A stretch of DNA of 34,021 nt, from assembly GCA_016215105.1 (NCBI GenBank), contig JACRLJ010000128.1, positions 1 to 34,021 on the forward strand, read 5' to 3'. Numbering within the stretch: the stretch's first letter is position 1; every line of letters starts with the position of its first letter. The notes below the pieces were generated by a model, which was not told the DNA's origin, did no database searches, and saw only the letters and a list, made by a program, of their open reading frames with translations. Source of the stretch: Candidatus Hydrogenedentota bacterium. Its GTDB lineage: Bacteria; Hydrogenedentota; Hydrogenedentia; Hydrogenedentales; SLHB01. Both the position numbers and the translations under genes were made by a program. Below, piece by piece: positions 2,987 through 28,472 of this stretch.

Positions 2987-3065
2987 TGGTACCGAGGAAG
3001 GGGTTCGAACCCTTGACCTCTGGATCCACAATCCAGCGCTCTAACCAAACTGAGCTACCCCGGCC
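2987..3065 (-). tRNA. tRNA-His (anticodon GTG)
   Basis: Reverse complement reads GCCGGGGTAGCTCAGTTTGGTTAGAGCGCTGGATTGTGGATCCAGAGGTCAAGGGTTCGAACCCCTTCCTCGGTACCA. It folds as a cloverleaf with D-stem GCTC/GAGC, anticodon stem CTGGA/TCCAG, loop TTGTGGA (anticodon GUG), T-arm AAGGG-TTCGAAC-CCCTT and encoded CCA. It sits immediately upstream of hisS on the same strand. Confidence 0.85.
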
Positions 3066-6051: not shown

Positions 6052-6152
6052 GGTCTCCTGCGTCCCTTTGGGACTGACCGGCAGGTGATCGGTGATCCGG
6101 GGGTTCTCTTCGGTCACCCCCGGCTACTCTCCTGGCGTCCCTTCGGGACTTT
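6052..6152. repeat. Structured ~100-bp repeat, copy 1 (three hairpins with UUCG-type loops)
   Basis: ctcctgcgtccctttgggactgac ... ccgggggt-tctcttcggtc-acccccgg ... ctcctggcgtcccttcgggactttgac. About 85% identical to copy 2 at 6927-7027, in direct orientation. Confidence 0.8.
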
Positions 6153-6926: not shown

Positions 6927-7027
6927 GGTCTCCTGCGTCCCCTCGGGACTGACAGGTGGGTGGCTGGCGATCCGGGGGTTCCCTTCGGTCACCTCCGGCT
7001 ACTCTTCTGGCGTCCCTTCGGGACTTG
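6927..7027. repeat. Structured ~100-bp repeat, copy 2
   Basis: ggtctcctgcgtcccctcgggactgac ... ccgggggttcccttcggtcacctccgg ... cttctggcgtcccttcgggacttga. A direct repeat of copy 1. Stem positions vary while pairing is retained (G-U in the middle hairpin). Confidence 0.8.
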
Positions 7028-7039
7028 AATGGACGAGAC

Positions 7040-8285
7040 GGATCAGGGATGACTCGCCAGTAGAGAACGGGAGCTTAGTGCTCCCCAGTTTCAGGTCGGC
7101 AGTGCCGCCAATGCGCTAAAGGCAAGTTCCAGGGGGCATCTGGCGATCTGCAGGAAGTAATTGCCGATACGAGCCAGATAGATGACGCGTTCCTCTCGTG
7201 TGTTTGCCTTCATGAGCCGGGCGATGTCGAGGGTTTCGGCCGCGGCTCCGAAGGCGCATAGGAATACATAGGCCAGCGCCAGGATATAGAAGTGCCGGTC
7301 GTGTCGCTGAGGCTGGGATAGACGCACATGATCCATTCCAAGTCCCCAGTTGCGGTTCTTGGGGTCTCGGAACATGGCTTCGGTCCACATGCGACGCTTA
7401 TAGACGCGTACCACCTCTGCCGGGGGCTCAACGTCAAGATTGGTAACCAGATACCACGCTTCGTCGGCCTCGCGATCAAAGGTGGTCACCACTCGAATGG
7501 GGCCCATTGTTGCTCATCCATCGTACCCCAGCCCCAGTCCCTGGGTGTCCATCCGCGGCGTATCCCCAGTTCTTTGAGGCTACCCATGTGCTTTTCGACC
7601 GCGACCTGATGAATATGGGATAAACGCTGGACAAAGTACCATCCCCGGTTTGCGATATCGCTTAACCACCGCACGTTGCCGAAGCCCCGATCCGACACGA
7701 TAACCGGGGTAACTCCGACAGGGCACATCTCTGCGAGCATCTCCAGCGCTCGGTGCTCGCCGGCAATCATGGCGCCTTCCTGATCCCCCTGGTGTTCACT
7801 CTTGCGGATAGTCACACATAAGAAGGGAAGAGCGCGGCCATCGCGGGGCAGAGAAAACACCAACTGTTGAAACGGGGCCATATCCGTCCAATCCGCCAAA
7901 ACAATCGTGTGTCCAGTCGTTGGCCGAAAGAACGAAAACAACGCTGCGCTTATGGCTGAGGTCTCAAATTGGTCATTGCGCAACAACCGCCAAACTCGCT
8001 TGATACAGTGTTTGGCTGCGACTGCGCCAGCCATAGCACGTCCTAACGCCAGAACGCCAACCCCCCTCATCTGAAGCGCCGCGCTCACCACATCGGCCAA
8101 GGTTTTGCGCCGCGACTGCCGCATGGACTGGACATGCGTTTCCAACCACGTCAAAATGTTGCTCGGGTCGTACATGGATTTCTCCTCCTTGGATGGCTGC
8201 TAGTGGCAACTTCAGCCTATTTTAGACGAGAACCGCCGTCTACGACCCACTGCTATACAGACTTAGGGAGACTGGGGATCACTGA
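7040..8285 (-). mobile_element. IS4-family insertion sequence (boundaries approximate)
   Basis: Contains the transposase ORFs 7091-8175. Possible imperfect terminal repeats near ~7069-7084 (tgctccccagtttcag) and ~8268-8283 (reverse complement tgatccccagtctccc). Exact ends not resolved by eye. Confidence 0.55.
7091..8175 (-). pseudogene. IS4-family DDE transposase, interrupted by a frameshift (ORFs 7486-8175 and 7091-7507)
   Basis: N-terminal ORF carries D (LADWTD) and D (VSDRGFGN). C-terminal ORF carries YKRRMWTEAMFRDPK, an exact Y-(2)-R-(3)-E-(6)-K IS4 signature. The two frames overlap at 7486-7507 around a GGGGCCCC run. Confidence 0.7.
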
Positions 8286-8579: not shown

Positions 8580-9464
8580 ATGGAACCCAACTGGCGAATA
8601 ATCGAACAAGAGAATCGGGGGTTATCGATTCAGTCCGCCTGTGCTCTCGGAGAAGGGTGGAACTCTCGCGCTTACCTGGTAAACAACGCGCTGGTCTTCA
8701 GGTTCCCTAAACGGCCCGATCAATGGGGGGAACTTCGGCGCGAGATCGACTTTCTGGATTTTGCGGCAGATTTGCTTCCGCTAAGCGTCCCTCGGTATGT
8801 CGGGGTGAATCCGGAATCGCTTGCCGCAGCATGTGGCTACGCTATGTACCGGTACTTGGCCGGGGATTTGTTGGATCTTCGTGTTATGTCGCAGACTGAG
8901 CGCGGTAAGGCGTCTGATTGTATTGCTACGTTCTTACGGGCCTTACACAGATTGGAACCGAGTCCTGAAATTGGGGACGCTTTACCGAGGGAAGATGCGC
9001 GAAAGGTCGCAGAGTACTACCTGGAGCGTACCGAACGCGAGATCGCGCCAAAGCTGCAAATGCGGGACGCTAAGGCCTTGGTCGCGCAATTTGAGGCGTA
9101 TCTCAGCAGATCCGAAAACTTTCTGTTCCGGCCCGTGGTTCTCCACGCCGATCTCGGCCGAACGCATCTCTTGATGGAAGACAGCGCAGTCGTTGCAGTT
9201 CTTGATTTTGGCGACATCAACTGGGGTGACCCCGACTACGATTTCGTCTATCTGTTCAATGATTTTGGTCCCGTGTTCGTCGAGGCAGTGGCGCTCAGCT
9301 ATGGGCATCCCGACCTTGAAAGCCTTCGAAGCAAGCTCCGGTACTATGCAGTAGTGGACCAAGTGGACACTATTCTGCACGGTGGCGGTCGTGCCCTTGA
9401 TGGCCAAGAAACGGAGGCGTGGCGTCGTCTCAGACAGTTCGTCCGGCGAAAGAATTGCGAGTAA
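8580..9464 (+). CDS. Aminoglycoside phosphotransferase, APH(2'')-like (phosphotransferase enzyme family)
   Basis: 294 aa. N-terminal GEGWNSRAYLVNNALVFRFPK parallels APH(2'')-Ia [21 protein letters not shown]. Catalytic region VLHADLGRTHLLMEDSAVVAVLDFGDINWGDPDYDFVYLFND parallels [41 protein letters not shown] (Brenner motif HxDxxxxN and the DFG-like IDFGD). GC is lower than the surrounding genome. Confidence 0.75.
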   Translation: MEPNWRIIEQENRGLSIQSACALGEGWNSRAYLVNNALVFRFPKRPDQWGELRREIDFLDFAADLLPLSVPRYVGVNPESLAAACGYAMYRYLAGDLLDLRVMSQTERGKASDCIATFLRALHRLEPSPEIGDALPREDARKVAEYYLERTEREIAPKLQMRDAKALVAQFEAYLSRSENFLFRPVVLHADLGRTHLLMEDSAVVAVLDFGDINWGDPDYDFVYLFNDFGPVFVEAVALSYGHPDLESLRSKLRYYAVVDQVDTILHGGGRALDGQETEAWRRLRQFVRRKNCE

Positions 9465-14495: not shown

Positions 14496-15875
14496 CTACA
14501 GCCTGATGTCTTTGAGTTTCCAACCCTTGCGGAAGGCCGGTTTGATGAACTCGTTGGCTTTCTCGTTGTTGGTGAAACGCAGGTTCTTGGCGTCCCACAG
14601 GAGTTCCTCGTTCGGGAACCGCCAACTGAGGGCGCCCAGCAGAACCCATTCCGTGTACGGACCCGCGATGCCGAAGGGCGAACACGTCTCGCCATCGCCT
14701 TTGCACGCCCGGATCCAGTTTTCGAAATGTCCCGGCGATCGCTTCAAAACCAGCGCAGGCAGGACATAATCCTTCATCTTGGCTCTCGGAAGCAGGGTCA
14801 CAGACTCGCCACGGCCTCCCGTTCCCATATACCCCTTCGTGCCTACAAATATCTCGTTGATGTCCTTCAGATCAGCTCCCGCGATTTCCGCAGGCGGCGT
14901 ATATTTTGCCGCCATGTTCCCTTCATACCAGTGGACCGTGACCGGCCCCATCCGGCCCCCGGGAACATACGGATTTGGACGGTCTGCGAATTTCATCTTG
15001 CACGCATAGTGCGGATAGGTGACCGGATTAACCCCCTCGACCGTGATGCACTGCACGCTCACTGGGCTGCCGAGTTGCAGACCCCAATTCGCCGGTCCGA
15101 GCATATGGATACCCCAATCGCCGATCATCTGGGAACCGTACTCCAGAAACCCGCGCCAGTTCGACGGATGAATCTTTGAACTGAAAGGATGCTGCGCTAC
15201 ACGGCCGGACCATAGATCCCAATCCAACGTAGAGGGCACGGGCTCGGCTGCGGGCCATGCGGTTATGTCGCGCGCAAAGCCGCCGCCGCACGTCGTGTGG
15301 ACCTCTGTAATGTCCCCGAGGGCGCCGCTCCACATGATCTCGCACGCCACCCGCGTGGCTTCCGAAGAGTACCCTTGGTTGCCCATTTGCGTCACCACGT
15401 TGTATTTCTTCGCGGCCTTCGTCAAGAGACGCGCTTCCCACACGCTCTGCGTGAGGGGTTTCTGGCAGTACACGTTCACCCCCAGTTTCATGGCGCGCAG
15501 CGCGACCGAGGCATGCATGTGGTCGGGTATGGTGATCGTGATCCCATCGAGATTCTTGTGCTCTTTGTCGAGCATCTTGCGAAAATCCCGGTACAACTTG
15601 GCCTTGGGAAACGCCTCCGCCGCCTTACGCAAGAACGCCTCGTCCACGTCGCAAAGGGCATAGATGTTCTCGCCACGCACGCTGCGGACATCGTTTAGTC
15701 CCTGCATTCCGCCCACACCGACGCAACCGATGTTCATCTTGTCGCTCGGCGCCTTCCGGCCCGAGGCCGCCACAACATGGCGCGGCACAATGGAAAAAGC
15801 CGCCGCTGCCACCGTTGAAGCCAGGAATTCCCGCCGTGTAAACCCTTTGTTGCGCATGAATCTGCTCCTGTACAT
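14496..15875 (-). CDS. Gfo/Idh/MocA-family NAD(P)-dependent oxidoreductase with Tat signal peptide
   Basis: Twin-arginine motif TRREFLASTVAAAAF. Rossmann motif NIGCVGVGGMQG and the typical Gfo/Idh/MocA core (ALCDVD..., DGITITIPDHMHA, YCQKPL). An alternative start at 15857 (MRNKGF...) has a better RBS. Confidence 0.85.
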   Translation of the reverse strand: MYRSRFMRNKGFTRREFLASTVAAAAFSIVPRHVVAASGRKAPSDKMNIGCVGVGGMQGLNDVRSVRGENIYALCDVDEAFLRKAAEAFPKAKLYRDFRKMLDKEHKNLDGITITIPDHMHASVALRAMKLGVNVYCQKPLTQSVWEARLLTKAAKKYNVVTQMGNQGYSSEATRVACEIMWSGALGDITEVHTTCGGGFARDITAWPAAEPVPSTLDWDLWSGRVAQHPFSSKIHPSNWRGFLEYGSQMIGDWGIHMLGPANWGLQLGSPVSVQCITVEGVNPVTYPHYACKMKFADRPNPYVPGGRMGPVTVHWYEGNMAAKYTPPAEIAGADLKDINEIFVGTKGYMGTGGRGESVTLLPRAKMKDYVLPALVLKRSPGHFENWIRACKGDGETCSPFGIAGPYTEWVLLGALSWRFPNEELLWDAKNLRFTNNEKANEFIKPAFRKGWKLKDIRL

Positions 15876-16238: not shown

Positions 16239-17105
16239 TTGCGGTCCAGCCCATACCCCGTTATAATCGTTCCACCCAACGAAAAGAGACGAATCTTGAA
16301 GCCGAGCGATGTTCCCCTGGCAGCGATCTGCGCCGATATTGAGCGATCGTGCTCACTTTCTATTCGTAATGTCGAACATATTTCCCTGACCGCTCGCAGC
16401 GCGGTTTATCTTGCGGAAACGCCCAATGAACGAATGGTCCTGAAGCTATCCGCAAATTCCTCGCCGACTCTCACGTCAGCCCAGGAATTTCAGGCGCTTC
16501 AGGCAGTGCGTATCCAAGGGCAGGTTCGCGCTCCAGTTGCCGTGGCGCACGGTAAACACCTCGGAGTCAGTTGGCTTCTTCAGGAATTTCTTGGAGGAGA
16601 ATCGCTTTCAAGCTTCTTCATAAGCGAGACTCAGTGCGCGGATGATCACCTTGAAGACATTTTCCAAGCGGGGCAGCTTCTAGCCAAGCTTCACGCAGAC
16701 GCCAAGACCGGCCACTCTGCGCAACGTTCACTCGATCACGCGTTGGAAGTGGCTGCGTACAATCTCGAGAATTCCCTCTATGACCCGGACGAATTCTTGG
16801 GTATCGCGCCACCCGGCGAGATCTATGAGTATCTACGCACGCAGCGTCCAGATTCTCTGCGGGAATGTCTGCTCCATGGGGACTTTCGTCCAAAGAATAT
16901 CCTCGTACAGAAGAACGGTCAACTTGCCCTGATTGACTGGGAACACAGTTTCCCTGGCGATCCCTATTATGACCTCGCTGTCTTTGCTTACTACTGTAGT
17001 CAGGACAGCGTCTTGACCAGATTTCTCGACGGCTATCGGTTGACCGCTATTGATCGCGAGAGACTTCGCTATTTCGATCTGCTCAGTAAGCTTCTGAATG
17101 TCTAG
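16239..17105 (+). CDS. Phosphotransferase enzyme family protein (APH/choline-kinase-like fold)
   Basis: Catalytic motifs LLHGDFRPKNILVQKNGQLALIDWEHSFPGDPYYDLAVF (HGDxxxxN plus IDW/D). Start codon uncertain (TTG at 16239 or a downstream alternative). Lower GC than neighbouring genes. Confidence 0.7.
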   Translation: MRSSPYPVIIVPPNEKRRILKPSDVPLAAICADIERSCSLSIRNVEHISLTARSAVYLAETPNERMVLKLSANSSPTLTSAQEFQALQAVRIQGQVRAPVAVAHGKHLGVSWLLQEFLGGESLSSFFISETQCADDHLEDIFQAGQLLAKLHADAKTGHSAQRSLDHALEVAAYNLENSLYDPDEFLGIAPPGEIYEYLRTQRPDSLRECLLHGDFRPKNILVQKNGQLALIDWEHSFPGDPYYDLAVFAYYCSQDSVLTRFLDGYRLTAIDRERLRYFDLLSKLLNV

Positions 17106-17183
17106 CGAAAAGCGTCGCATTCCGGAAATCATCTGTTCGAATCTTTCGCTAGACGGGGCAACTCTAGTGCCTGCAATAAGAAA

Positions 17184-17209
17184 GCCCTTCGACGTACTCA
17201 CCGAAGGGC
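17184..17209 (-). terminator. Hairpin gcccttcg-N10-cgaagggc (repeat copy A of the tRNA-Pro terminator element)
   Basis: 8-bp perfect stem. On the minus strand it is followed by TTTCTTATT. Same stem sequence as the hairpin immediately 3' of tRNA-Pro at 28257-28282. Confidence 0.4.
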
Positions 17210-17327
17210 CGACTTGTAAGAATGACTGAACGTCTGCGGAAAGGGGGGCACTACCACTCGCGCAGCCGCGCGGCAGGATTCTGGTCTAGGGCGAAGGCAG
17301 GCACTATAATCAGCAGGGTCTGCGGGT

Positions 17328-19232
17328 GTGAACTGTTCTTGCGAGAATCCACTCATGATGACTTCTGTGATATGTACTGCCATCGTCGCGGCGCTGGGGG
17401 CCGAATGTGAGGGCGCCTCTATCCATATCGGATTCGACGCATTTCGAGAGGTCTTTGCCCCGGAGTCTGTGGGCGCGATCGATAGTCCCCAAGCGAAGCG
17501 GTATGTGGCGGAGTTCGATTGTGAGCTGGAGGATCTGATAAAGGGATTCGATTTCGAGAAAGGACTGCTGGACCTGCACGGGGAAATGCCGCCGCCGCAA
17601 ATAGCCGAGCTTGATCGCTTGTCTCGCAAGGTATACGCCGAGCGCAAGGAATACCGGTGGCTGTATCAACAGAGCCGGCAGTCGGCGTCTGTGATTGGAA
17701 ATATGGCTTTGGCCTGGGCGCTGCCGATTTCCGAGCATTCTGGGGACGAGCGGTTTCGGCAAGGAGTGATCCGCGGTATACAAGCCTACCTGGAACATCA
17801 GGCCCCTTCCGGCGAGTTTCAGTTCTGTTCCATACGCTTTAGCAGTGTGTACGGCACACACGAAATGGCTTGGCGCCTCGAGCCGTTGCTGGCAGCCTAC
17901 CTGTGTATCCGCCATACGCTGCCGCCGGAGCAGGATCACCGATTTTATGAAGGGCTGCTTCGCGCGGCCCAATATCTGTACGACACGCCGTGTTCGTCGG
18001 AGACGAACCGCGGGTGTGTTTGGTGCGGGGTGATGGCGGGTGCCGCCAAGGTGTTTTCCAGGCCGGAGTACGCGGAGCGCGCGCGCCAAATTTGGGCGGG
18101 AGTAGGTCCGCGCGTGTTTGACCCGTCCGGACAGGTTGTCGAGGGGTTGGGGCCGGATATGGGGTACTCGTTCATTTCGCTTCTCTATACCTTTCGTCAC
18201 CGAACGGCATCGAAAAACGCGGAACTTGACGCTCCCCTGATGCGCGCCTTGGATTGGTTCTCCACCGTCCACGATTCCAATGGCTTGCCGATGCAGTTCA
18301 TTTCGTCCCGTACAGAACAATTCGCGCCGGACAGGCTTGCGTATCTCTTAAGCGCGCTTGAGTATTACGCGCGCGAGCGGCCCTACTATGCGACACTCGC
18401 GCATGAGTATTTCGATATCCTCGGGCGAAGTCATGGCCACTACGCGTGCGACCACGGTGGAATCCCGTGGATAACGGCAGCCTTATACCACAACCCCGCG
18501 ATACTTCCCGCCCCGTTGCCCGATTCGTTGCTGCGATTCACCACGGAATACTCGGGGGAGGTAACCGGCTACTTGAATGTCCGACGCGACTACAGCGCAG
18601 TCGTGGTGTTTGGAGGAGTAAAGGACTTGTGCGGTTTGCAGCACTGGACGTTGGCCGGAGAACGTCCACTCATATGCGAGTCGCCGAAGAGCCGGTCGAG
18701 CGTAAAGGCGTGGGGCCTCGATACGTCGCGTAGTCGAGTGCTTACGAGTCATCGCCGGGATTCGAGCGATCTGGAGACGGCGTCAATTGATTGGGGAGGA
18801 ATCCGCACGTGTTACGTCTTTGGGGACGGCGTCACCTGGGTTTTCGATGTTGCTCCGAACCTGAAGCGTGAGGTGAGCTGGGCCATTAACAAGAACGTGT
18901 GCGCAGAGCCGAGGCTCGAGGATGGCGCTATCCGGACAGAGAAGCAGAAATCGCGTATCAACGCGGGTCCCGTTGCTCCGTGTCTTGACGAAGTAGAGAC
19001 TGGCTGGCACGTGCGTGTCGTCGTGCCCGACAACCAGCCTGTCGACTGGACCATCTTTCACGACGGCTCGGCCGGTCCGGTAACGGCGGGGTTTAAGGAC
19101 GGAATCCTCACGGCCAACCTGACAAGTGAGAACGCAACCTATGATCTAGTGTACAATGCGGGAGAGAGGGCGTTCACGGTTGATGAGGCAGAATTGAAGC
19201 CGCGTCAGGTCCGAGTCCGGCGTGCGCGCTAA
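17328..19232 (+). CDS. Hypothetical protein, possibly heparinase II/III-like polysaccharide lyase fold (tentative)
   Basis: 634-aa ORF with genome-typical codon usage. N-terminal hydrophobic segment MMTSVICTAIVAALGA. The RSHGHYACDHGG segment loosely resembles the GHxHxD region of the heparinase II/III family. The overlapping antisense ORF 17310-18320 is Arg-rich and judged spurious. Confidence 0.5.
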   Translation: MNCSCENPLMMTSVICTAIVAALGAECEGASIHIGFDAFREVFAPESVGAIDSPQAKRYVAEFDCELEDLIKGFDFEKGLLDLHGEMPPPQIAELDRLSRKVYAERKEYRWLYQQSRQSASVIGNMALAWALPISEHSGDERFRQGVIRGIQAYLEHQAPSGEFQFCSIRFSSVYGTHEMAWRLEPLLAAYLCIRHTLPPEQDHRFYEGLLRAAQYLYDTPCSSETNRGCVWCGVMAGAAKVFSRPEYAERARQIWAGVGPRVFDPSGQVVEGLGPDMGYSFISLLYTFRHRTASKNAELDAPLMRALDWFSTVHDSNGLPMQFISSRTEQFAPDRLAYLLSALEYYARERPYYATLAHEYFDILGRSHGHYACDHGGIPWITAALYHNPAILPAPLPDSLLRFTTEYSGEVTGYLNVRRDYSAVVVFGGVKDLCGLQHWTLAGERPLICESPKSRSSVKAWGLDTSRSRVLTSHRRDSSDLETASIDWGGIRTCYVFGDGVTWVFDVAPNLKREVSWAINKNVCAEPRLEDGAIRTEKQKSRINAGPVAPCLDEVETGWHVRVVVPDNQPVDWTIFHDGSAGPVTAGFKDGILTANLTSENATYDLVYNAGERAFTVDEAELKPRQVRVRRAR

Positions 19233-19407
19233 TCCAGTTATTCATGGTTGATGCCGTCATTATTCAGGGCCGCGTGTGCGCAACCGGCTTTTGCGAGGAT
19301 GCCGGTGGCGAGAGCGAATATCGCGCGAAGTCTTTCGTGCCTAGACCAGATCGCCGTACCGTTTCACGGCTGCGCGCCTCTGGTCCGTTCAGGTGAGGCG
19401 CCTCACT

Positions 19408-19526
19408 CTACCCCTTGCGATTGAGTTTCGGTGTGGGCGTTGCGGGAGGCTAGTTCCACCAACGAGAAAGCCCTTCGACGGAAACGGCGAAGGGCTGATT
19501 CTTGGAGATAGTCGGGGCGACTGGGC
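19408..19526. repeat. Repeat copy B: ~119 bp homologous to the region flanking the tRNA-Pro 3' end (28195-28311), including the terminator hairpin and a 17-nt tRNA acceptor-end fragment
   Basis: ctaccccttgcgattgagtttcggtgtgggcgttgcgggaggctagttccaccaacgagaaagcccttcgacggaaacggcgaagggctgattcttggagatagtcggggcgactgg versus D ctaccccttgcgtttgaatttcggtgggcgtgttgcgcgaggctagttccaacaatgagaaagcccttcgacctggttgccgaagggctgaatcttaaagatggtcggggcgactgg. Confidence 0.75.
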
Positions 19527-19693
19527 GAGGACAGAACTATTCTGGATCGGGATTGTCGAGCTTCCTCCAATTGTCCCTTAGGATCCGGCCGTAACGCACA
19601 CGTAAATAGTCGTCTTCGAGACAAGCGCGCTCGGCCCATTCGCGGCCCGCGTGGCCCACGCTTCCTGGTCGCGAGAACAAAGATTAGCACCGT

Positions 19694-20403
19694 TCACTTT
19701 GCCTCGAACCGCCAAGGCCCATCCCGGCTAACAAAGACATCCGGATTTGTCGGAGGCGAGAGCAGGCCGCCCGCGCCGTAGTCCAGCTCGAATTTCAGTT
19801 GTTCAATCTTCTGACGGCCTTCTCGGCCGACCTCAACCATAAACTGTACGTAGCCAATGAACGGGAGCTGTTTGTTGAAGAAATCGGGTTGTTGCTCGAC
19901 CATCCATTTTACCGCCGCCTCTTCGTCACTCTTCCAGGGCACATCCTGCCCGTTGTACGACGCCAACATATCTTTGTACTGAGCGCGCTCCGACTCTGGC
20001 ACACGAAGTGTCCCGTGGTAGCTTTGCTTGGGGTGGGCAGGGTCAACGGGCGGCTGATCACACGAAAGAGCTTGCCAAGTGGACCAATGCTTGCGGTCGG
20101 GACTGTACCGGGCGAAGAACTGTCCCGGAGGCAGGGCAGTGGAATTGTTTTGAATCTTATACTCTCCCGGCGGCACAACCTCGGCGCGCATTCTCACCGC
20201 GTACACCGTCCTCCAGGACCAGCCCACCGCCACAGGTTCGGTTTGAAGTGTCTGCGGATCGGTCCATGACGCCTTTTTCGCAGCCTCCGTGGGTTTAGTA
20301 AAATCGATGATCAGAGAATTGTTCCCCTGGATCACGGATTCCGCACGACAAGCGAACAGAATCGGACTCAGGATCGCGAGGAACGCCAACGGCTTGTTCA
20401 TTT
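19694..20403 (-). CDS. Secreted hypothetical protein
   Basis: Likely start ATG at 20403 (GAAGGGG RBS) giving MNKPLAFLAILSPILFACRAESV, a signal peptide. No recognised domain. The longer ORF extending to 20566 has no RBS. Confidence 0.5.
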
Positions 20404-20508
20404 GATTGCCCCTTCTACCCGTGGGTATCCAAAAACAAAAACACTTGGGGTTGCACCCTATTCCGGTTTGAACCGAAGTAAGGCTCGCCCCTTCTTGAGA
20501 TTGTGAGT

Positions 20509-21417
20509 TTAGTTCTGAATTGGACTCGCACCTTGGCTCTTCCTTTGACGAAGGATTTCCGCCCACGCCGGGATATACGGATACGCTCCCGAGCGGTGAA
20601 ACTCTACGTGGCCGTCCATGTACAGCACGTTTCCACCATCTGGCGTGTGGTTGAAGCTAATCTCGGTTGAGGAAGATTCGAACGTATCAAACGCAACCAC
20701 GGTGCGAACCCGCGCCCAGGCATCCCACCCGCCAGGCGGATCGGGCCCGTTAATATCGGTCAACATGAATCGTTCGAGGCCATTTCGGAGGCGGAGCACA
20801 GTTTCGGGTTTGGTGTAACTTTTGGGGCCTCCCACGAGGACAAACCGGCCAATACCGTTGTGCCCTCCCTCTAGCTTCACCTCTCGCAGTTTTCCGCTGT
20901 GCAGCGCGTCGAGGATGCCCGCAACGGTTTTATCGGCTGAATAGTATTTCGGGTCGGTGAACCAGGCCTCTCTAATCATGAGCCCAAGGTAAATATACGA
21001 CGAATCATCAAATCGGCACGGGTCGGACACTCCGTCCGCACCGACCCAGTCTCTTGCGCTTACGCGCTTCGCGTTGGTCGGGCACACCAGGATACTGGGA
21101 TCTGTCAAATACGTTGGGTAAAGCGATGAGCCGTTCACCATGAATACGCTTGTATTTACGTTACTGCAGCCAGGGCCAATATGGTCCTGAATTGGCGGAT
21201 AGTATCCGTTGTTTTCATCGGCGTAGAGCCGGCACGCAACGCTGAATTGCTTGAGCCGCATCTGACAGGCCGCCTTCGGATGAAAGATGTCGGCGTTATA
21301 GATGCGCGGCGCAAGTAATACCAGCAGAAAGAGAAGACCTAGCAACCCTATGATGACAACGAATTCACGTGTTGAAACACGGCGCCGGTGCGATTCATTT
21401 GCGGGCTGCTGGTCCAT
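20509..21417 (-). CDS. DUF1559 (H-X9-DG) family protein with prepilin-like N-terminal segment
   Basis: N-terminus RRRVSTREFVVIIGLLGLLFLLVLLA followed by ACQMRLKQFSVACRLYADENNGYYPP. C-terminal HTPDGGNVLYMDGHVEF is the H-X9-DG motif. GGAGGGG RBS. The family is characteristic of Planctomycetota. Confidence 0.8.
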   Translation of the reverse strand: MDQQPANESHRRRVSTREFVVIIGLLGLLFLLVLLAPRIYNADIFHPKAACQMRLKQFSVACRLYADENNGYYPPIQDHIGPGCSNVNTSVFMVNGSSLYPTYLTDPSILVCPTNAKRVSARDWVGADGVSDPCRFDDSSYIYLGLMIREAWFTDPKYYSADKTVAGILDALHSGKLREVKLEGGHNGIGRFVLVGGPKSYTKPETVLRLRNGLERFMLTDINGPDPPGGWDAWARVRTVVAFDTFESSSTEISFNHTPDGGNVLYMDGHVEFHRSGAYPYIPAWAEILRQRKSQGASPIQN

Positions 21418-21635
21418 ACCGTTCCCCTCCGGTCAGCAAACGTAACACTGGGTGCTGAGCGCATTATATCAGAGGGCTTTGTCGGAAAGGAGGTAGACCG
21501 GGGACTTCGGGGTTGATTCGCTGCGTGAGAGACGGAGATTTTCGCACAGTCACGGGAAGACGTAAACAAACGAGAAATGAAGATTCGTCGAGTAAGTTTC
21601 CTCACAACGGACGGTTTAGCGCTGCCCTCAAAACA

Positions 21636-21722
21636 AAAACCCTCCGACGTGCTCGCCAAAGGGCTGATTTCTAAAGATGGTCGGGGCGACTGGATTTGAA
21701 CCAGCGGCTCCGGACTCCCAAG
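21636..21722. repeat. Repeat copy C: degenerate terminator hairpin plus 45-nt fragment of the tRNA-Pro 3' half (T-arm and acceptor end)
   Basis: tggtcggggcgactggatttgaaccagcgg (21678-21707) is identical to the 3' 30 nt of tRNA-Pro, with similarity continuing to ctcccaa (the anticodon-loop region). The upstream ccctccgacgtgctcgccaaagggctgatttctaaaga matches the D-copy terminator with mismatches. Confidence 0.75.
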
Positions 21723-21784
21723 ACCATTAGGAAGTATTGCCTTTGCGGCGAAATGCCAATCCTAACGGATCGACACTACAGGTC

Positions 21785-24013
21785 TTAGTTTGGCGGCGTC
21801 CACCACGCCATCGAATCCGACCCGTTGCCGGTCTGGAACTTGCCCGTGACCGTCAACGAATCCAGATCAATGACGTGGACGCCGTCCGTCTCTTCACACC
21901 CTGCGAACGCGTGCTTGCCGTCGGGAGACAACTCGAGTCCAATGGCCCTGCTCCCCACCGGCAAACATTTGATCTCCGTCAGTGTCGCAACATCTAGAAC
22001 GACGACTTCACCCTTCTCCGTCCAACTGGACACCAGCGCTCGCCGGCCATCGAGCGTGAAGCGTATCCGGACAGGTTTTCCAGGACACGGAATCGTCTTG
22101 ACGGGGGTATGCGTCGCCAGATCGATGATCGTGATGCTGTCGCCTTCCTGATTGAGAGCCCACAACTGCTTCCGATCGGGCGTGAAGGCCATTCCTTCGC
22201 ACCCCTTCCCGCAAGGGATCTGCGTGATCAGCGCGCCCGATTCCCGGTCGATCACGGAGACGTTCTGCGTGTCGATGTTTGCGGTGTACAGCCGCTTGTT
22301 GTCGTGCGAGACCAGGACCATGTGCGAAATCTTGCCGTGGGTAGGTATACCGCGCGTGACCTTGTTGGTCTGAGTGTCGATTTCCACGACAAAGCCCGTC
22401 TGGCCCGCCGTAAAGTAGGCGTGTTTTCCATCGGGCGCCATCGCGGCTCCGTGGATACGCGAGTACTCGCCCGTGGAAATCTGCGCGACGTGTTTGCGCT
22501 CCACCAGATCGATCACCGACACCGTATTTCCCGGCGGCGCGTAGTTCGAGAGATAGGCAAAGCGGCTGTCCTTTGAAAGCACGATTTCATGGGGGTTCGG
22601 CCCGGTGGGAATCTTCGCGATCGGCTCCAGGGTCCGGGGGTTGACGAAAGAGATGGTGTCCTCGTGCTTGTTTAAAACTAGCAGAACGTCCTGATCGGGC
22701 GGAAGCTTGCGTGGATCGCCGAGTTCGTTCAGCAACTCAAATGGCGGCTCTTTGCCGCCTTCGCGCGTAGTAAAGAAATTGTAGACCATGAGACCATCGG
22801 CGCCATCCTCCCAGAGCCACCGCGCGATCCGGCGATAGGTGTCTTTTGAAGGCTCGACTTCAATGGAGGCGTAGATCGGCAGGCCGGCGGGAAACACGCG
22901 GCGGTACTCGCGAACGGGTAAGGGAAAGTCGTTCCGGAGGTAGTGCGACACGGTCACGAAATCCACGATCCCCTCCTTCGCCCAGGCGATGGGATCGATA
23001 CCGATGGCCCGATTCTGTTCCGGCAGGGCCATGATGCGGACGGACAACCGCACGGGACGCCCGCGTTCTTGACCTATCTCCCGCGTCATGCGCCGCACAT
23101 CGCGCATCCAGCCGGTCATGACCGCTACGTTTTCCGATTCCTTGCCGGGCGAAAAGTACATGGGAAACCGCTGGAAGTCCAGGTCGAGGCCGTCGATCGG
23201 ATAGCGCTCGCAACACTCGCGCAGCTCCGCGAGCCGCTGCTGCCGCACTTCGGGAACGGCGTAGTTGAGACCGCCAGGCAGCCAACTCCCCACGACCGGG
23301 TGCGTCCGGGGACCGAGGATTTGGACGTACACACTGGACAACGCATCGCCCGGTTTTCCGATGCGCCAATCGGGATGCTCCTTCCAGAATCGCGACAACA
23401 GTATGCTGTCGGATTCGTCAACCGCGTGGACTTCGTTCAGCCGAAACGTGAGGAAGGTTTCCAGGCCCTTTTCTTTCGCGCGGGCTACGATAAGACCTAG
23501 AGGGTCATGGCCGGCGTCAACCAATGCCCTCAGATTCACTGCCGTCCGTTCAAGAGAGCCCGGCTTCGTTGCTGCCGGGTCCTTGATAGTCTCGGCTACG
23601 GCTGGACTCAGGCGCGCGCCCAACATTTCCGACGCCTTCCCGGGAAAGTTGACGTTCATTCCGACGTTGGGGCTGATGAAAAGCGACGTGGCGCCAGCCC
23701 TTCCAATCTCGTCGACGTAACCCAGGACGTCGGCGGGCTGCATCGGGTACGCTTTGTATAGGAACATGTTGTCGCCATCGCTATTGTAGATGAGACGGCG
23801 GCGCGCGTCGCTCCCGCCGGTGTGTTTCTCGTCTACAGGACCAGTGTCTGCTTGTGCGACCATGATTTCCGCTCCTACGGACGAATTCTGAATGCGGCCT
23901 CTCTCGCTGCCCCAGCGAGTGTTGTCAATGCCGAACTGGTGAGAATCATCTGGACAAGGAACGATCAGAACGCCAAACGCGACTGCGGCCACGATCCCCA
24001 ACACACTTGACAT
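21785..24013 (-). CDS. Secreted two-domain protein: glycoside-hydrolase-like TIM-barrel region plus C-terminal YVTN-type beta-propeller repeats
   Basis: Start ATG 24013 (GGGAGG RBS), signal peptide MSSVLGIVAAVAFGVLIV. Central YPIDGLDLDFQRF resembles the DGxDxDxE strand of GH18/GH-like barrels, with Q in place of E. The C-terminal ~350 aa contains at least 6 repeats of the ~40-aa YVTN beta-propeller pattern (e.g. LYTANIDTQNVSVIDRESG, LWALNQEGDSITIIDLATH). Confidence 0.6.
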   Translation of the reverse strand: MSSVLGIVAAVAFGVLIVPCPDDSHQFGIDNTRWGSERGRIQNSSVGAEIMVAQADTGPVDEKHTGGSDARRRLIYNSDGDNMFLYKAYPMQPADVLGYVDEIGRAGATSLFISPNVGMNVNFPGKASEMLGARLSPAVAETIKDPAATKPGSLERTAVNLRALVDAGHDPLGLIVARAKEKGLETFLTFRLNEVHAVDESDSILLSRFWKEHPDWRIGKPGDALSSVYVQILGPRTHPVVGSWLPGGLNYAVPEVRQQRLAELRECCERYPIDGLDLDFQRFPMYFSPGKESENVAVMTGWMRDVRRMTREIGQERGRPVRLSVRIMALPEQNRAIGIDPIAWAKEGIVDFVTVSHYLRNDFPLPVREYRRVFPAGLPIYASIEVEPSKDTYRRIARWLWEDGADGLMVYNFFTTREGGKEPPFELLNELGDPRKLPPDQDVLLVLNKHEDTISFVNPRTLEPIAKIPTGPNPHEIVLSKDSRFAYLSNYAPPGNTVSVIDLVERKHVAQISTGEYSRIHGAAMAPDGKHAYFTAGQTGFVVEIDTQTNKVTRGIPTHGKISHMVLVSHDNKRLYTANIDTQNVSVIDRESGALITQIPCGKGCEGMAFTPDRKQLWALNQEGDSITIIDLATHTPVKTIPCPGKPVRIRFTLDGRRALVSSWTEKGEVVVLDVATLTEIKCLPVGSRAIGLELSPDGKHAFAGCEETDGVHVIDLDSLTVTGKFQTGNGSDSMAWWTPPN

Positions 24014-24466
24014 GTATGAACCTCCCGCGTGCCCGAGCGACAAAGACCTTCCAGCAAAACCCCGTGCAACAGAGTGACCTCGTAGCGCCGGCGTCCTCGC
24101 CGGCTCGGTACTGACGCTCTGAAGCCGCCGGGACGGCGGCGCTACGTTGATTGAGCGACGGTTCTTTAGAAGTTCAAAGTCACTGTATGGAAGCCTCAGA
24201 CACAAATCAAACCGGTGAATAGCCCTGTGGTCCCCAGTTCTGCAATCGTTACTTGCGAAGCGGGTTGCGATGGTCACAGTTCTTCGGCTAGGAATCCGGC
24301 CAGAAAGCCGGCTTCTTGACCGCGCCTCCGGGCAGGCTGTACGAGAGGATGGCACTCAGTGGGAGAGTTTATACGGATGCGCTTTGCTCAGGAATACCGT
24401 CGTCTTCGCGGTCGTTTCCCTAATCAAAGCATAGGAGGGTGTCCTGTGTCGCGACGACTGCGCCCC

Positions 24467-26118
24467 ATGGCATGGACATTACCGGGAGGTCTCATTGTGG
24501 AGCGCTCTGCGCGCGCACGGCTGATCGTTGGCTCTGTCTTCCTGGTCGCATTGTTCGTTTTGTGTCCTGCGGCCCCGGCGCAACTCTGTGTGGACGCACG
24601 AAACCTTACCGGTACGCCGGACGGTACCGCAGCGAAGCCGTTTCGAACAGTTCAATCGGCGGTCGACGCGGCCGCTTCCGGGCAGTCCGTACTCGTCGCC
24701 ACGGGCGCCTTTGGGGAAGACGTGCGCGTCGAGAACAAGACCGTCACGCTGCTGGGAGGTCATACGGGCGGCACGCCCGGCCAATATGGCCTGGGGACGG
24801 CGGGGGATTTCACCAGGAGTCGGTGGTAACCCTGATTGAAGCAGGCCCCAGTGTCGTGGACGGATTCCGCATTACCGGCGGCGGTGGCAGCACGACCGAT
24901 CTGCCGTACTCGTCGAATGGTGGCGGGATATTTGTGCGGGGCGGGGCGCCAGTTATAAGGAACAACGTGATCGCGAACAACGACCCACGCCGGCCCGGAG
25001 ATGTCTCGACTTTCGGTGGCGGTATCTATTCAAACAGCGCTGACATTGCGATCGAAAACAACACCATCTCGGAGAACATCGCCATGCGCGGCGCTGGAAT
25101 CGCTGCGGTTGGCGGGACGGTGGTCATTAGCGGGAATACGGTCCGGGCGAACGTGGGATACGGCGACCACGGCGGGGGCATGTATGTCGGAGCGCCAAAC
25201 GCCACTATTACGCACAACCGCATCTACGAAAATGAGATCGGCCGTGACCTCGGATACGGATGGGGCGGCGGCATCATTATTTTCAATCAGGGAAACCACG
25301 CGGACCTTTCGTACAACGAAGTGTTCAGCAATTACGCGCCGGGTCACGGGGCGGGCATCTTTGTGGACGAAGGCGCCACGGCGGTGCTGCGAAACGAGAT
25401 TGTGCATCACAATATGGTGGACGCCGGCGAGACAGGCGGGGGGGCTGTATACGTGGACGGCGGCGAGTTCAACGGTGTCCCGATCGGTTCCGTGGTGAGC
25501 ATCATCAATTGCACAATCGCTGAAAACCCCGTAACGGATGCGTATCTGGGCGGGAACGCGCTTTTTGTGGAGGGGAACTCCACCGTTACTGTACGCAACA
25601 GCATCCTGTGGGGGAACGGACTGGAGGTCTGGTTCGACAACACGTCCACTGTCCAGATCACCTATAGCAATATTGCGGAGAGTATCGCAGGCGCCGGCAA
25701 CATATCCCAGAATCCTCTCTTCGCCAATGCGGCTGCGGGCGATTTCCACCTGAAATCTGAAGCGGGCCGCTGGGACCCCGCCGCGAACTCGGGGGCAGGG
25801 AGCTTTGTCCTGGACGCTGCCACAAGTCCGTGCATCGACTCAGGCGACCCTGTAGATAGCTTTGCGTCCGAACCGGCGCCCAACGGCGGGCGGATCAACA
25901 TGGGCGCTTACGGGAACACGCCGGAAGCCAGCCTATCCACCCACGGCGGGGGTAATCCGCCCACAGATCTGAATGACGACGCCGCGGTCAACGCGGTCGA
26001 TGTACAACTGGTCATCAACGGCGCGCTTGGGGTGGGCGGCGCCGCCGACGTGAATACCGACGGATTCACGGACGCCGTGGACGTGCAATTAGTGATCAAT
26101 GCGGCATTGGCGGCATAA
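24467..26118 (+). CDS. Secreted right-handed parallel beta-helix (pectate-lyase-fold) protein with C-terminal dockerin-type repeat pair; reading frame shifts at a G-run near 24800
   Basis: Frame of ORF 24359-24829 encodes signal peptide MAWTLPGGLIVERSARARLIVGSVFLVALFVLCPAAPAQ and the first helix rung (PFRTVQSAVDAAASGQSVLVATGAF). Frame of ORF 24439-26118 continues with NN-rich beta-helix rungs (VIRNNVIANN, IENNTISENI, GNTVRANVG...) and ends with DLNDDAAVNAVDVQLVINGAL / DVNTDGFTDAVDVQLVINAAL dockerin-like repeats. Junction is at ggcgggggattt (~24795-24806). Confidence 0.5.
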
Positions 26119-26470
26119 GAAATCACGCTGACGGCGCGCGTGGCGCCGTTCGATGACTTCGGATGAATGGGGGCCCTGATTCGTTCGTTCCCATCCCATA
26201 GATCGTCACTCCGAATGGGTATGGGCAGAACGGAACCAAGAACGTCGCCGATTCCATATCTCCGACCGGAACTCACCGCAAGAAAGCCAGTGACTCGCTG
26301 CTGCAAGCCAATGACCTGAAAAAGACTTATATGGTCGGGGCGACAAGACACCGTTAGAACTCCTTCTGGCTGGCGACTGGGATTGAGAAGCGCACCTGCA
26401 GCAATTGACCGGCACTTTGGCCGATGGGAGATGTGGCCCCGACGTCGCCAGAGAGGTCGTCCGAGCCATT

Positions 26471-26531
26471 CAACCAAATGGTTGACATCTGCGGAATTCC
26501 GATGTATGATTCAACCATATGGTTGAATCAC
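26471..26531 (+). promoter_or_regulatory. Sigma70-like promoter (TTGACA 26482-26487, N17, TATGAT 26505-26510) flanked and overlapped by two perfect palindromes TCAACCA-AA-TGGTTGA and ATTCAACCA-TA-TGGTTGAAT
   Basis: Read directly from the sequence. The two dyads share the half-site CAACCA/TGGTTG and bracket the -35 and -10 elements. This is the classic layout for ArsR/SmtB autoregulatory operators upstream of the ArsR-family gene. Confidence 0.55.
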
Positions 26532-26875
26532 TCCAGAGCTCAATGCCATGCCGGCTCGATAGAGTCTTCCACGCCCTGTCTGATCCTACGCGGCGGTCGA
26601 TCCTGCGGGACATCGCTAAACAGGAAAAGACGGTGGGGGAGATCGCGCGCCCCTACCGCTCCTCGCTGGCGGCAATCTCTAAACACATTCAGGTGCTGGA
26701 GAGTTCGGGGCTGGTGACCCGCCGAAGGCAGGGCAGTTTTCGGTACGTAAGGATCACACCAATGCCGTTGAAGGAAGCCCAGCAGTGGCTGTCCTTCTAC
26801 GAGTCATTCTGGAATGAGCGACTTGACGCTCTAGCAGACCTGTTCACAAAACCCGAGAAAAAGGATAAGCCATGA
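26519..26875 (+). CDS. ArsR/SmtB-family transcriptional regulator
   Basis: VFHALSDPTRRSILRDIAKQEKTVGEIARPYRSSLAAISKHIQVLESSGLV is the ArsR wHTH signature. An alternative start at ATG 26543 (MPCRLDRVF...) is possible. Stop overlaps the next gene start (ATGA), suggesting an operon. Confidence 0.8.
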   Translation: MVESLQSSMPCRLDRVFHALSDPTRRSILRDIAKQEKTVGEIARPYRSSLAAISKHIQVLESSGLVTRRRQGSFRYVRITPMPLKEAQQWLSFYESFWNERLDALADLFTKPEKKDKP

Positions 26876-27891
26876 ACCCTGCAGCAGTTACCCGAAACGT
26901 TGTCCGTATTTCGCGAACTATCCCGGCGACTCCGCATCAGGTCTACCGGGCTTGGCTGGACCCGGACCTAATCAGACGCTGGATGGCGCCTGGCGCTTTC
27001 GAAGCTACGCGCGTCGAGGTGGATGAGCGAATTGGTGGCCGATACCGGATCTGGCACGCGGACGCCGGCGCTTCCGTCGGCGGGTTCGAATGCGAAATAC
27101 TTGAACTGGACCCCGACCGGCGCATCGCTTGGCGGTGGGGTTTCGCCGGTCCCGACCGTGCGGAGGGACCGATCTACGACTCCCGGCTCCACATCACACT
27201 GCACGAAACTCCCGATGGCAGCACCGTGATTGACCTAGTTCACGAGCACCTCGATGACGTTGCGGCGGCGCTGCCCAACGTCATAGAGAAGGTCGCAGAC
27301 GGGTGGGAGAACGTTCTATCGAAATTGAGCGTTGCACTGTCCGCTGCCCCTCGCTCTTCCAGTGCATCACGTGAACCAAGCGAAATGCGCAAGCCTGTGT
27401 TTACCGAGACGATGCAGATCGGCATCGTGGTGCGCGACCTCGACGCGGCCGTGCGAAGCTACACCGACGACTACGGTATCGGACCGTGGGAGTTCTACCA
27501 ATTCAAGCCCGAAGACGCCAAAGTTTGGCTTGAGCATGGCCAGCCGGCCAAACCGTCTACGCGTATCGCGATGGCGATGGTTGGCAAGGTGCAGTGGGAG
27601 CTGATCGAACCGCTCGACGACAGGAGCATTTTTGCGCAGTTCCTCGCCGCGACGGGCGGGGGCGTGCACCACATCGCCGTCGCATCGACGAACTTCGACG
27701 AGATCCTGGCGGCAGAGGCAAAACGAGGGAACGATTTAGTCCTTAGTTGCGAGTTGGACGGCGCGTTCAGCGGCATCAAGGTCGCGTACCTCGGCGCCCA
27801 GCGCAATCTTGGAGTGATCCTTGAGGTATTCAGCGGTCTGCCCCCTGCTAAGGCCGAATCACCCGATGCGCCTGACCGCGGCGGCAAGTAG
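26872..27891 (+). CDS. Fusion protein: N-terminal SRPBCC/AHSA1-like domain plus C-terminal VOC (glyoxalase/bleomycin-resistance/dioxygenase) domain
   Basis: N-terminal ~150 aa (RTIPATPHQVYRAWLDPDLIRRWMAP...GGRYRIWH...) resembles AHSA1/SRPBCC proteins commonly co-encoded with ArsR. After a Ser/Pro-rich linker, MQIGIVVRDLDAAVRSYTDDYGIGPWEF...GGGVHHIAV is a VOC fold. Continuous ORF with no stop between the domains. Confidence 0.7.
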   Translation: MNPAAVTRNVVRISRTIPATPHQVYRAWLDPDLIRRWMAPGAFEATRVEVDERIGGRYRIWHADAGASVGGFECEILELDPDRRIAWRWGFAGPDRAEGPIYDSRLHITLHETPDGSTVIDLVHEHLDDVAAALPNVIEKVADGWENVLSKLSVALSAAPRSSSASREPSEMRKPVFTETMQIGIVVRDLDAAVRSYTDDYGIGPWEFYQFKPEDAKVWLEHGQPAKPSTRIAMAMVGKVQWELIEPLDDRSIFAQFLAATGGGVHHIAVASTNFDEILAAEAKRGNDLVLSCELDGAFSGIKVAYLGAQRNLGVILEVFSGLPPAKAESPDAPDRGGK

Positions 27892-27948
27892 GCTTTTGCA
27901 GAGTCAGGGCTCCCTGAGCCGCCGCGGCGGGCGAGCCTATCGTTCGGC

Positions 27949-28194
27949 TTGGAGAGGAGCGACGGCTTGAAAGCGATGCAAGCAATTCAGATCGCGCTGA
28001 AGTTCAGCGACGGCGGCATGAAGCGGCTGGAGGAGATGACGGCTGATCCGCTCGTGCGGCCGGGTCCGTGGGGCGGTAGCCGCGCAATGTGGATCGGCGG
28101 GCATTTGGCCGTCATCGAGGGCCGCCTGCACAAGATGTTTCCCGGCACGCCAAGTGGTGTTCAAAGGTTTGGTGCTTTCGGTAGGGGCTTTGTT
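27949..28194 (+). pseudogene. Possible DinB/YfiT-like family gene fragment truncated at the boundary of repeat D
   Basis: ORF 27949-28317 begins LKAMQAIQIALKFSDGGMKRLEEMTADPLVRPGPWGGSRAMWIGGHLAVIEGRLHKMF, loosely resembling the DinB_2 N-terminal helices. From ~28195 the reading frame runs into the repeat shared with copy B, so the C-terminal half of a DinB-like protein is missing. Confidence 0.25.
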
Positions 28195-28311
28195 CTACCC
28201 CTTGCGTTTGAATTTCGGTGGGCGTGTTGCGCGAGGCTAGTTCCAACAATGAGAAAGCCCTTCGACCTGGTTGCCGAAGGGCTGAATCTTAAAGATGGTC
28301 GGGGCGACTGG
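28195..28311. repeat. Repeat copy D: the native flank and terminator immediately 3' of tRNA-Pro, homologous to copy B
   Basis: See copy B alignment. Includes the hairpin gcccttcg-N10-cgaagggc (28257-28282) and the first 16 nt of the tRNA acceptor end. Confidence 0.75.
28257..28282 (-). terminator. Rho-independent terminator of tRNA-Pro (minus strand)
   Basis: Read on the minus strand: AGCCCTTCGGCAACCAGGTCGAAGGGCT followed by TTCTCATTGTT, beginning 13 nt after the tRNA CCA end. Confidence 0.55.
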
Positions 28312-28372
28312 ATTTGAACCAGCGGCCCCCTGCTCCCAAAGCAGGTGCGCTACCGGGCTGCGCCACGCCCCG
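28296..28372 (-). tRNA. tRNA-Pro (anticodon TGG)
   Basis: Reverse complement CGGGGCGTGGCGCAGCCCGGTAGCGCACCTGCTTTGGGAGCAGGGGGCCGCTGGTTCAAATCCAGTCGCCCCGACCA. Perfect 7-bp acceptor stem CGGGGCG/CGCCCCG, D-arm GCGC-AGCCCGGTA-GCGC, anticodon stem CCTGC/GCAGG with loop TTTGGGA (U33, anticodon UGG), T-arm GCTGG-TTCAAAT-CCAGT, encoded CCA. Confidence 0.9.
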
Positions 28373-28472
28373 AACCGTTATTGCCGAGTCATCATACCAA
28401 ATGGGGCGTGACCAAAGCGAACCGGCTTGGCCGCGCGGCGTGACGGGGCCAAATCGGGGCATGCCGATTACG

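Follow-up and report, generated by a model that had tools for sequence, protein, structure and literature searches.

The window considered here is the entire 34,021-bp contig of a 'Candidatus Hydrogenedentes bacterium' metagenome-assembled genome (MAG), and the feature at issue is a displaced 3' fragment of a tRNA-Pro gene, termed copy C, that lies on the minus strand at 21672-21722 within an array of related repeats. The anchor of the array is an intact tRNA-Pro(TGG) gene with an encoded CCA (28296-28372, minus strand; copy D), the single intact tRNA-Pro(TGG) that ARAGORN and Rfam (65.4 bits as tRNA) find in the window. Repeat finding and alignment identify at least five copies in the same orientation, A at 17.2 kb, B at 19.5 kb, C at 21.7 kb, E at 26.3 kb and the intact gene D, all of them direct repeats on the tRNA strand. 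The copies bound four islets of 2-4.6 kb that carry ordinary cargo and no recombinase. Such an arrangement was probably made by repeated site-specific integration into the tRNA-Pro gene.

Copy C was delimited by ungapped comparison with D. Its tRNA-derived part is 21678-21722, in agreement with an earlier note on this DNA that had credited it with 45 nt of the tRNA-Pro 3' half, and the degenerate anticodon-arm part occupies 21709-21722. The same note had described a 30-nt identity to the 3' end of tRNA-Pro (21678-21707, equivalent to 28296-28325), which holds, although the exact run is in fact 37 nt long (21672-21708, equivalent to 28290-28326). This 37-nt core is made up of 31 nt of the tRNA-Pro 3' end, comprising two to three variable-loop bases, the full T-arm, the 3' strand of the acceptor stem, the discriminator and the encoded CCA, together with 6 nt downstream of the gene. 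Weaker similarity does continue into the anticodon loop, as had been noticed, with 9 of 13 positions on the anticodon side (21709-21721) matching D, including six of the seven bases of the anticodon loop. Beyond what had been noticed, similarity also extends past the tRNA 3' end (30 of 45 positions), through a terminator hairpin, to ~21627. Only ~3e-14 shared 37-mers are expected by chance in 34 kb, and a chance origin of the match between C and D is therefore excluded. The window's other tRNA, tRNA-His, does not contain the copy C sequence.

The statement that the fragment cannot be a functional tRNA is borne out, as no tRNA is predicted at 21.6-21.8 kb by ARAGORN or, at E<=10, by cmscan, and the possibility that copy C folds into a complete alternative tRNA is ruled out on the same grounds. 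Across 17000-28450, the intact gene is the only Rfam tRNA match at E<=10. In annotation, the fragment should be labelled neither a tRNA nor a tRNA pseudogene.

Outside the 37-nt core, the flanks of C and D are only 67% identical, with perfect stretches of at most 16 nt, and a perfect run of 37 nt has a probability of ~4e-4 when the same number of mismatches is placed at random. Core and flanks thus differ in history, as is expected for a recombination core between heterologous arms. In addition, copy C is in direct orientation with the intact tRNA-Pro, on the same strand. The 3' strand of the anticodon stem reads GTCCG in C versus GCAGG in the resident tRNA-Pro, so that 21709-21722 is not the 3' half of the resident tRNA itself. 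With such a mismatched anticodon arm, the crossover would have fallen within the 37-nt block, and 21709-21722 would represent an arm of the incoming element.

Two further copies retain shorter tRNA ends. Copy E (26329-26388, minus strand), the distal end of islet X1, consists of a 13-nt tRNA-Pro end, TGGTCGGGGCGAC, at 26332-26344 and an island-side junction element, AGAACTCCTTCTGG, at 26356-26369. In the case of copy B (19505-19556, minus strand), the tRNA-Pro end is 16 nt with one mismatch (TAGTCGGGGCGACTGG, 19509-19524) and is accompanied by a junction element of the E type, AGAACTATTCTGG, at 19533-19545. Against model R1, whose training set includes both copies, E scores 50.3 bits (E=2.6e-14) and B 41.5 bits. 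The TGGTCGGGGCGAC 13-mer with at most one mismatch has four matches in the window versus 0.11 expected, and the motif AGAAC-N2-5-TTCTGG has two versus 0.01 expected, both of them 12-13 nt inside fragments B and E. The B and E fragments begin at the junction of the T-stem and the acceptor stem, whereas C reaches the anticodon loop. Copy A, at the distal end of the array (17164-17224, minus strand), is a terminator module only, with no recognisable tRNA part left. The presence of junction E at 26.33 kb also means that the 6.6 kb between C and the intact tRNA is not one element but is divided into islets of 1.95 kb and 4.6 kb, the short fragment at 26332-26344 having gone unnoticed.

The repeat is not the tRNA end alone but includes a downstream terminator module that is common to all copies. 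On the tRNA strand every copy is followed by a hairpin and a U-rich tail, and a terminator scan of 16.5-29 kb ranks the hairpins of A, C and D above every other terminator-like site. The D flank module (28183-28295, minus strand) carries a minus-strand terminator hairpin at 28256-28283 followed by TTTCTCATTG, as well as a plus-strand hairpin at 28180-28199. The flank module of copy B (19396-19508, minus strand; repeat family D3, by ungapped comparison) has its hairpin at 19470-19495 and is 81% identical to the D flank over 113 nt. The module of copy C (21627-21671, minus strand) has a hairpin at 21638-21665 with a 12-bp stem, a predicted fold of -22.9 kcal/mol and the tail TTTTTGTTTTG, and lies downstream of a beta-propeller gene. 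For copy A, the hairpin is at 17183-17210 and the module (repeat family D1, found also by the terminator scan) is 75% identical to D. Downstream of copy E, a minus-strand hairpin at 26284-26317 followed by UUUCUU (fold -17.2 kcal/mol) is a structural analogue of the other modules with a different stem sequence. Across five copies, 96.7% of stem cells are paired, the only changes being to G-U pairs, with loops that differ; double-sided compensatory changes were not seen among these five copies. The pattern supports conservation of the stems, which is short of a proof of selection.

The junction element of B and E can be followed into other genomes, namely L021 (3.9 kb of MAG GCA_023487065.1) and L022, from a genome of 8.8 Mb (ERZ25074310 ctg12662), and it is at copy E that the homology of both with the window starts. 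It is ~50 nt long, starts with the 3' strand of the tRNA-Pro acceptor, and has the form TCGGGGCGAC-(A/T)(A/G)GAC-N7-(G/T)AACT-...-GGCTGGCG. Copies are found at 19505-19556 and 26329-26388 in the window, at 6690-6753, 7455-7516 and 9868-9930 in L022, and at 1608-1635 plus 1721-1760 in L021. In the window contig, the second MAG and the 8.8-Mb genome alike, the element is always direct with a nearby tRNA-Pro and is without a nearby integrase. In L022, a tRNA-Pro(TGG) gene is followed by three direct copies of it, the best of which is identical to window copy E at 40 of 52 nt; these copies bound cassettes, one of which is the same pair of ArsR and SRPBCC genes, with the same leader, that is found in islet X1 of the window. 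The tRNA fragment of copy B ends in GACTA, as the tRNA of L022 does, and not in GACCA. In another metagenome (L020), the hairpin module with ~20 nt of the tRNA-Pro end lies between unrelated genes, and shares 74% identity over 101 nt with the module of copy A. Among the copies as a whole, the length of the tRNA fragment varies (0, 13, 16, ~20 and 45 nt).

A longer shared stretch is found in L021, which is 93.4% identical to window positions 26425-28373 over 1951 nt. Islet X1 (26345-28182) encodes, by Pfam, an ArsR-family regulator (26519-26875), an SRPBCC/AHSA1-glyoxalase fusion (26872-27891) and a truncated DinB-like gene, and L021 has all three, together with the flank (93-97% identical to the D flank module) and the hairpin. 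There, however, the islet adjoins a different gene, tRNA-Pro(GGG), whose acceptor and anticodon stems differ from those of the window's tRNA by compensatory changes, and beyond the tRNA the two share no sequence. On the other side, homology starts at an E-type junction split by an insertion of ~85 nt, and the corresponding L021 region is weakly similar to the hairpin downstream of copy E. Of the 6.6 kb, only a 1.95-kb part is common to another genome, where it stands at a different tRNA-Pro. The DinB-like gene keeps its N-terminal 60-65 codons only (27976 to ~28170); the annotated small open reading frame (ORF; 27976-28317, plus strand) runs on through the tRNA flank and the hairpin into the tRNA 3' end, and full-length homologs of 148-172 aa match query residues 1-65 only, the match stopping where the flank module starts. 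Because this truncation is found in both the window and L021, X1 moved after the loss of whatever lay beyond. Two different tRNA-Pro genes, with other sequence past both ends in L021, provide direct evidence that this integrase-less unit has moved, and its presence at tRNA-Pro(TGG) and tRNA-Pro(GGG) in two genomes indicates that units without a recombinase still relocate.

A separate observation concerns the hairpin after the L021 tRNA-Pro(GGG), which is 94% identical to that of copy C. The loop and spacer of this hairpin (L021 3586-3656) are 94% identical to C (21636-21706) and ~90% to D (28254-28324), whereas the distal flank is D-like at ~97%. Such a mosaic, part C-like and part D-like, suggests that module copies have exchanged sequence or that a patch has been converted.

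The nearest relative found, L006, bears on the position of the array as a whole. Its rhomboid protein is 66-67% identical to that of the window, and a tRNA-Pro 93% identical to the window's tRNA-Pro follows the rhomboid gene. Gene order matches the window from 34021 down to the tRNA, and similarity of both DNA and protein ends at the tRNA 3' end. At 12150-13587 of L006, in the 2.8 kb without called genes downstream of tRNA-Pro, there are direct repeats of 60-210 nt (94-97%) and then an IS110-family transposase; the variable region that L006 has at this tRNA is of another kind. Scans of genome and metagenome contigs with the rhomboid protein gave relatives at 44-50% identity only and no close strain, and look-ups of exact proteins returned the same Logan contigs only. 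An oxidoreductase of locus L001 was considered as an ortholog of the window gene at 14496-15875 and rejected at 27% identity.

Recombinase genes were sought with Pfam and NCBIfam in ORFs of at least 150 aa across the contig and of at least ~100 aa within the array, and the intergenic DNA of the array was scanned as six-frame translations at E<=1. By these scans, no tyrosine integrase (PF00589) lies between the tRNA-Pro gene and the fragment, and islets X1-X4, for all their att-type repeat boundaries, encode no integrase or transfer genes. The earlier description of copy C as a classic attL/attR-type partial tRNA is accordingly sound in that C is a displaced, non-functional 3' piece in direct orientation and of att type, but the word classic does not apply, as these scans find no integrase in the contig. 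An integron cassette array was also considered and set aside, there being no IntI, cargo on both strands, and boundaries formed by fragments of tRNA ends rather than attC sites.

Partial copies beside integrases are found in viral sequences. A 22-mer of the tRNA-Pro 3' end matches seven IMG/VR contigs, in four of which it belongs to a partial copy without an ARAGORN tRNA call. In contig L010, for instance, 10.2 kb separate a full tRNA-Pro from a 49-nt partial copy, with a tyrosine integrase gene ending 18 nt from the latter, and in L013 and L015 the partial tRNA-Pro copies likewise adjoin tyrosine integrase genes. The integrase-linked partial copies of L010, L011, L013 and L015 span the anticodon stem-loop to the CCA, which is the extent of copy C, and that of L015 is followed by a hairpin and a T-run, as read by eye from the alignment. 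The integrases of L010, L013 and L015 were readily detected by the scanning method used for the window. In scans of viral contigs there was no match to the 30-mer, to the hairpin module, to the E-type junction or to the C-type arm; only the generic 22-mer of the tRNA end matched, and its matches serve as positive controls.

Given these observations, the view of copy C as an att-type scar, in a decayed array that was built serially at tRNA-Pro, is largely right. In the mechanism proposed, a circular element with its own tRNA-Pro 3' end and terminator would recombine with the resident gene inside the 37-bp block, an exchange for which a tyrosine integrase is the presumed enzyme. The incoming DNA would regenerate tRNA-Pro and supply a new terminator, and the old tRNA 3' end and its terminator would be pushed downstream, leaving C as an attR-type scar. 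The hairpin of C, now behind the beta-propeller gene, may serve as the terminator of that gene. Copies A, B, C and E would each mark an insertion downstream of the same tRNA-Pro gene, made one after another or one within another, by way of at least two types of junction, the C type with 45 nt reaching the anticodon loop and the B/E type with 13-16 nt at the T-stem/acceptor boundary plus the ~50-nt element. The integrase modules would either have been lost or never have been present, with the islets moved in trans in the manner of cis-mobilizable elements.

Several observations weigh against site-specific integration. Domains of integrases, serine recombinases and transposases were found neither in the large ORFs scanned nor in the six-frame translations of array intergenic DNA, and neither an empty site nor a circular junction was seen among the relatives found. 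The two strands that correspond to the anticodon stem in C (ATGGT/GTCCG) would pair poorly, in contrast to the viral attP examples, and the island-side arm of C is not matched elsewhere, including in the scan of viral contigs. The cargo looks like that of the phylum in general, and base composition does not set the region apart; with GC at 0.55-0.62 throughout, composition was discarded as an uninformative sign of foreign origin. Finally, the downstream terminator modules are of a single family throughout, yet the island-side arms of the copies are of at least three types, a combination that is not predicted by a simple model with one family of integrase.

As an alternative, circular or linear DNA could have been inserted by RecA in the manner of Campbell, through homology of the tRNA-Pro 3' end and terminator (~100-150 bp, 75-95% identical) and within its longest perfect stretch; this would generate the same direct repeats without a dedicated integrase, in keeping with a contig where scans find no recombinase gene. 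The homology between copies is indeed long, spanning up to 129 nt and reaching well past the tRNA, and the variable lengths of the fragments and the mosaic hairpin of L021 are also in keeping with general recombination. However, in six copies the spacing between the tRNA end and the junction element is constant, with the identity between the window and the 8.8-Mb genome noted above, which argues for a site recognised by a protein. The extent of C equals that of anticodon-type att fragments beside integrases, and the short perfect stretches outside the core would make a poor substrate for RecA, whose involvement we regard as unlikely. Duplication of the tRNA-Pro 3' end and terminator by local slipped or illegitimate recombination, with reuse behind neighbouring genes and no mobile DNA, would explain why each copy lies in intergenic DNA at the 3' side of a transcription unit and ranks with the best terminator-like hairpins of the region, and why stems are kept while loops vary. 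It does not account for the module and both junction types in unrelated contexts of other genomes (L020, L021 and L022), nor for the joining of X1 to a different tRNA-Pro in L021; moreover, a perfect core between diverged flanks is unlike uniform decay, and synteny breaks exactly at the tRNA. A purely local origin is thus considered quite improbable.

A wrong join of the MAG contig at the 37-nt repeat would make the context of the fragment chimeric. Independent Logan contigs from SRR12113407 do break inside the repeat, at 21701 and 28319, and the join from the core into 21709-21785 is carried by the MAG contig alone. Nevertheless, one of these contigs, L004, supports the flank of C up to its end at 21701, 30 nt inside the core, and the independent assembly of L021 supports the D-type flank and the full tRNA. 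C-specific bases on either side of the core differ from D, and a second partial copy must therefore exist however the flanks are joined, which leaves an assembly artefact with very little probability.

Serial, site-specific integration at tRNA-Pro has several known parallels. Insertion targeted to tRNA genes is a familiar route of gene acquisition in bacteria, and the array belongs to a known general kind, with precedents for serial integration that leaves scattered partial tRNA genes and integrase-less islands in PMC3146451, 10.1101/2020.12.28.424599 and PMC4383910. Island membership was judged by the criteria of Islander for islands integrated in tRNA genes (Hudson, Lau and Williams 2015, PMC4383910). 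In such islands, the intact tRNA gene has received its replacement 3' end from the element, and a displaced 3' fragment lies in the same direction. Here, the cognate fragments are at 21678-21722, 26332-26344 and 19509-19524, on the strand of the tRNA-Pro gene. Of the crossover sublocation classes (anticodon loop, T loop, T/acceptor junction) defined by Williams 2002, as cited in PMC4383910, the anticodon-centred one suits C, and that of the T-stem/acceptor junction suits B and E. The differences are that the islets, at 2-4.6 kb, are shorter than typical islands, and that similarity passes the tRNA end into the shared terminator module. No interval has an integrase gene, so that the Islander filter would reject every islet in the array.

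A similar architecture is seen in the ssrA islands of Dehalococcoides (McMurdie et al. 2011, PMC3146451), tandem islands with short direct repeats of the 3' end of the anchor, which is a tmRNA gene, and with a CcrB-like serine recombinase in 16 islands. As in the window, multiple islands lie in tandem downstream of one small RNA gene, extra conserved sequence surrounds the repeats, and synteny breaks down at the anchor; islands without an integration module also occur, and have been read as cis-mobilizable or as fixed remnants. The window differs in having tRNA-Pro as the anchor and no recombinase seen in scans. In the tycheposon islands of Prochlorococcus (Hackl et al., 10.1101/2020.12.28.424599), serial integration at tRNA genes pushes older elements inward and leaves scattered partial tRNAs and degenerate elements, as seen here, with cargo that consists of adaptive cassettes. 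The hallmarks of tycheposons, a tRNA-associated tyrosine (or large serine) recombinase and a replication module, were not found in scans of the window, and the phylum differs. With neither an Islander integrase nor the tycheposon hallmarks, the array is placed among decayed or cis-mobilizable arrays of this general kind, and outside those two specific families.

Accretion without an integrase of one's own is exemplified by the cis-mobilizable elements (CIMEs) that form tandem arrays with the integrative and conjugative elements (ICEs) ICESt1 and ICESt3 of Streptococcus thermophilus, where the target is the fda gene. PMC3146451 also cites the CIME concept. The islets resemble CIMEs in being arrayed by accretion, and in that X1, which lacks an integrase, is at two different tRNA-Pro genes. 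By analogy with CIMEs, the islets may have been mobilised in trans. They differ from CIMEs in that the target is a tRNA gene rather than fda, and in that no helper ICE or integrative mobilizable element with a cognate integrase was identified on the 34-kb contig.

A more speculative proposal, doubtful but conceivable, is that the islets are members of a family of small integrase-less cassettes not described before, arrayed at tRNA-Pro in Hydrogenedentota and in at least one other bacterium with a large genome. If so, each cassette would be bounded by the junction element, would bring a terminator for the regenerated tRNA, and would be moved in trans by an unlinked recombinase, the whole amounting to an integron-like cassette system with a tRNA gene as its docking site. 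In any event, the array illustrates how a variable region may be built in the poorly studied and uncultured Hydrogenedentota, by stacking of small cargo units at one tRNA-Pro. The 37-nt core, the terminator module and the E/B junction offer searchable boundaries for islets that have no integrase signal and are missed by standard island finders.

Just upstream of the ArsR gene of X1, a near-consensus promoter (TTGACA-17-TATGAT, 26482-26530) overlaps two TTCAACCAnATGGTTGA palindromes; this palindrome region, which is kept in L021, is probably the ArsR operator. A sub-threshold match to the Rfam family 'Lambda_thermo' at 26748-26799 lies inside the ArsR gene and was taken as chance. Islet X2 (21723-26283) has, by Pfam and NCBIfam, a beta-propeller/GHL10 gene (21785-24355, minus strand; an 856-aa ORF, 692 aa in the NCBI call) and a beta-helix/dockerin gene (24400-26118, plus strand). 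Homologs of the beta-propeller protein, up to 64% identical, reside in ordinary chromosomal contexts (L016-L019) without tRNA-Pro fragments. The window gene lacks the N-terminal DUF1080 domain (PF06439) that most of the closest homologs have, these being 920-975 aa long and 60-64% identical; homologs of only ~695 aa exist as well, so that truncation of the window gene is not proven.

Islet X3 (19557-21626) holds two minus-strand genes for secreted or prepilin-like proteins, one of 302 aa with an H-X9-DG motif at its C-terminus (20509-21417) and a secreted protein of 235-290 aa (19694-20566). Islet X4 (17225-19395) has one plus-strand gene of 625 aa (17355-19232) that matches no family.

Outside the array, paralogous genes for APH-family phosphotransferases are present at 8580-9464 and 16296-17105, the second just outside copy A. 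The tRNA-His(GTG) gene (2987-3064) lies directly upstream of the gene for histidyl-tRNA synthetase (1441-2889), both on the minus strand. A direct repeat of 100 nt, 88% identical, is found at 6052-6151 and 6927-7026, 875 nt apart, in a stretch (5.0-7.5 kb) where no ORF has a Pfam match, GC skew is ~+0.25 and AT skew falls to -0.27; each copy of this repeat holds GUCCC...GGGAC hairpins, with fold z-scores of -1.7 to -2.5.

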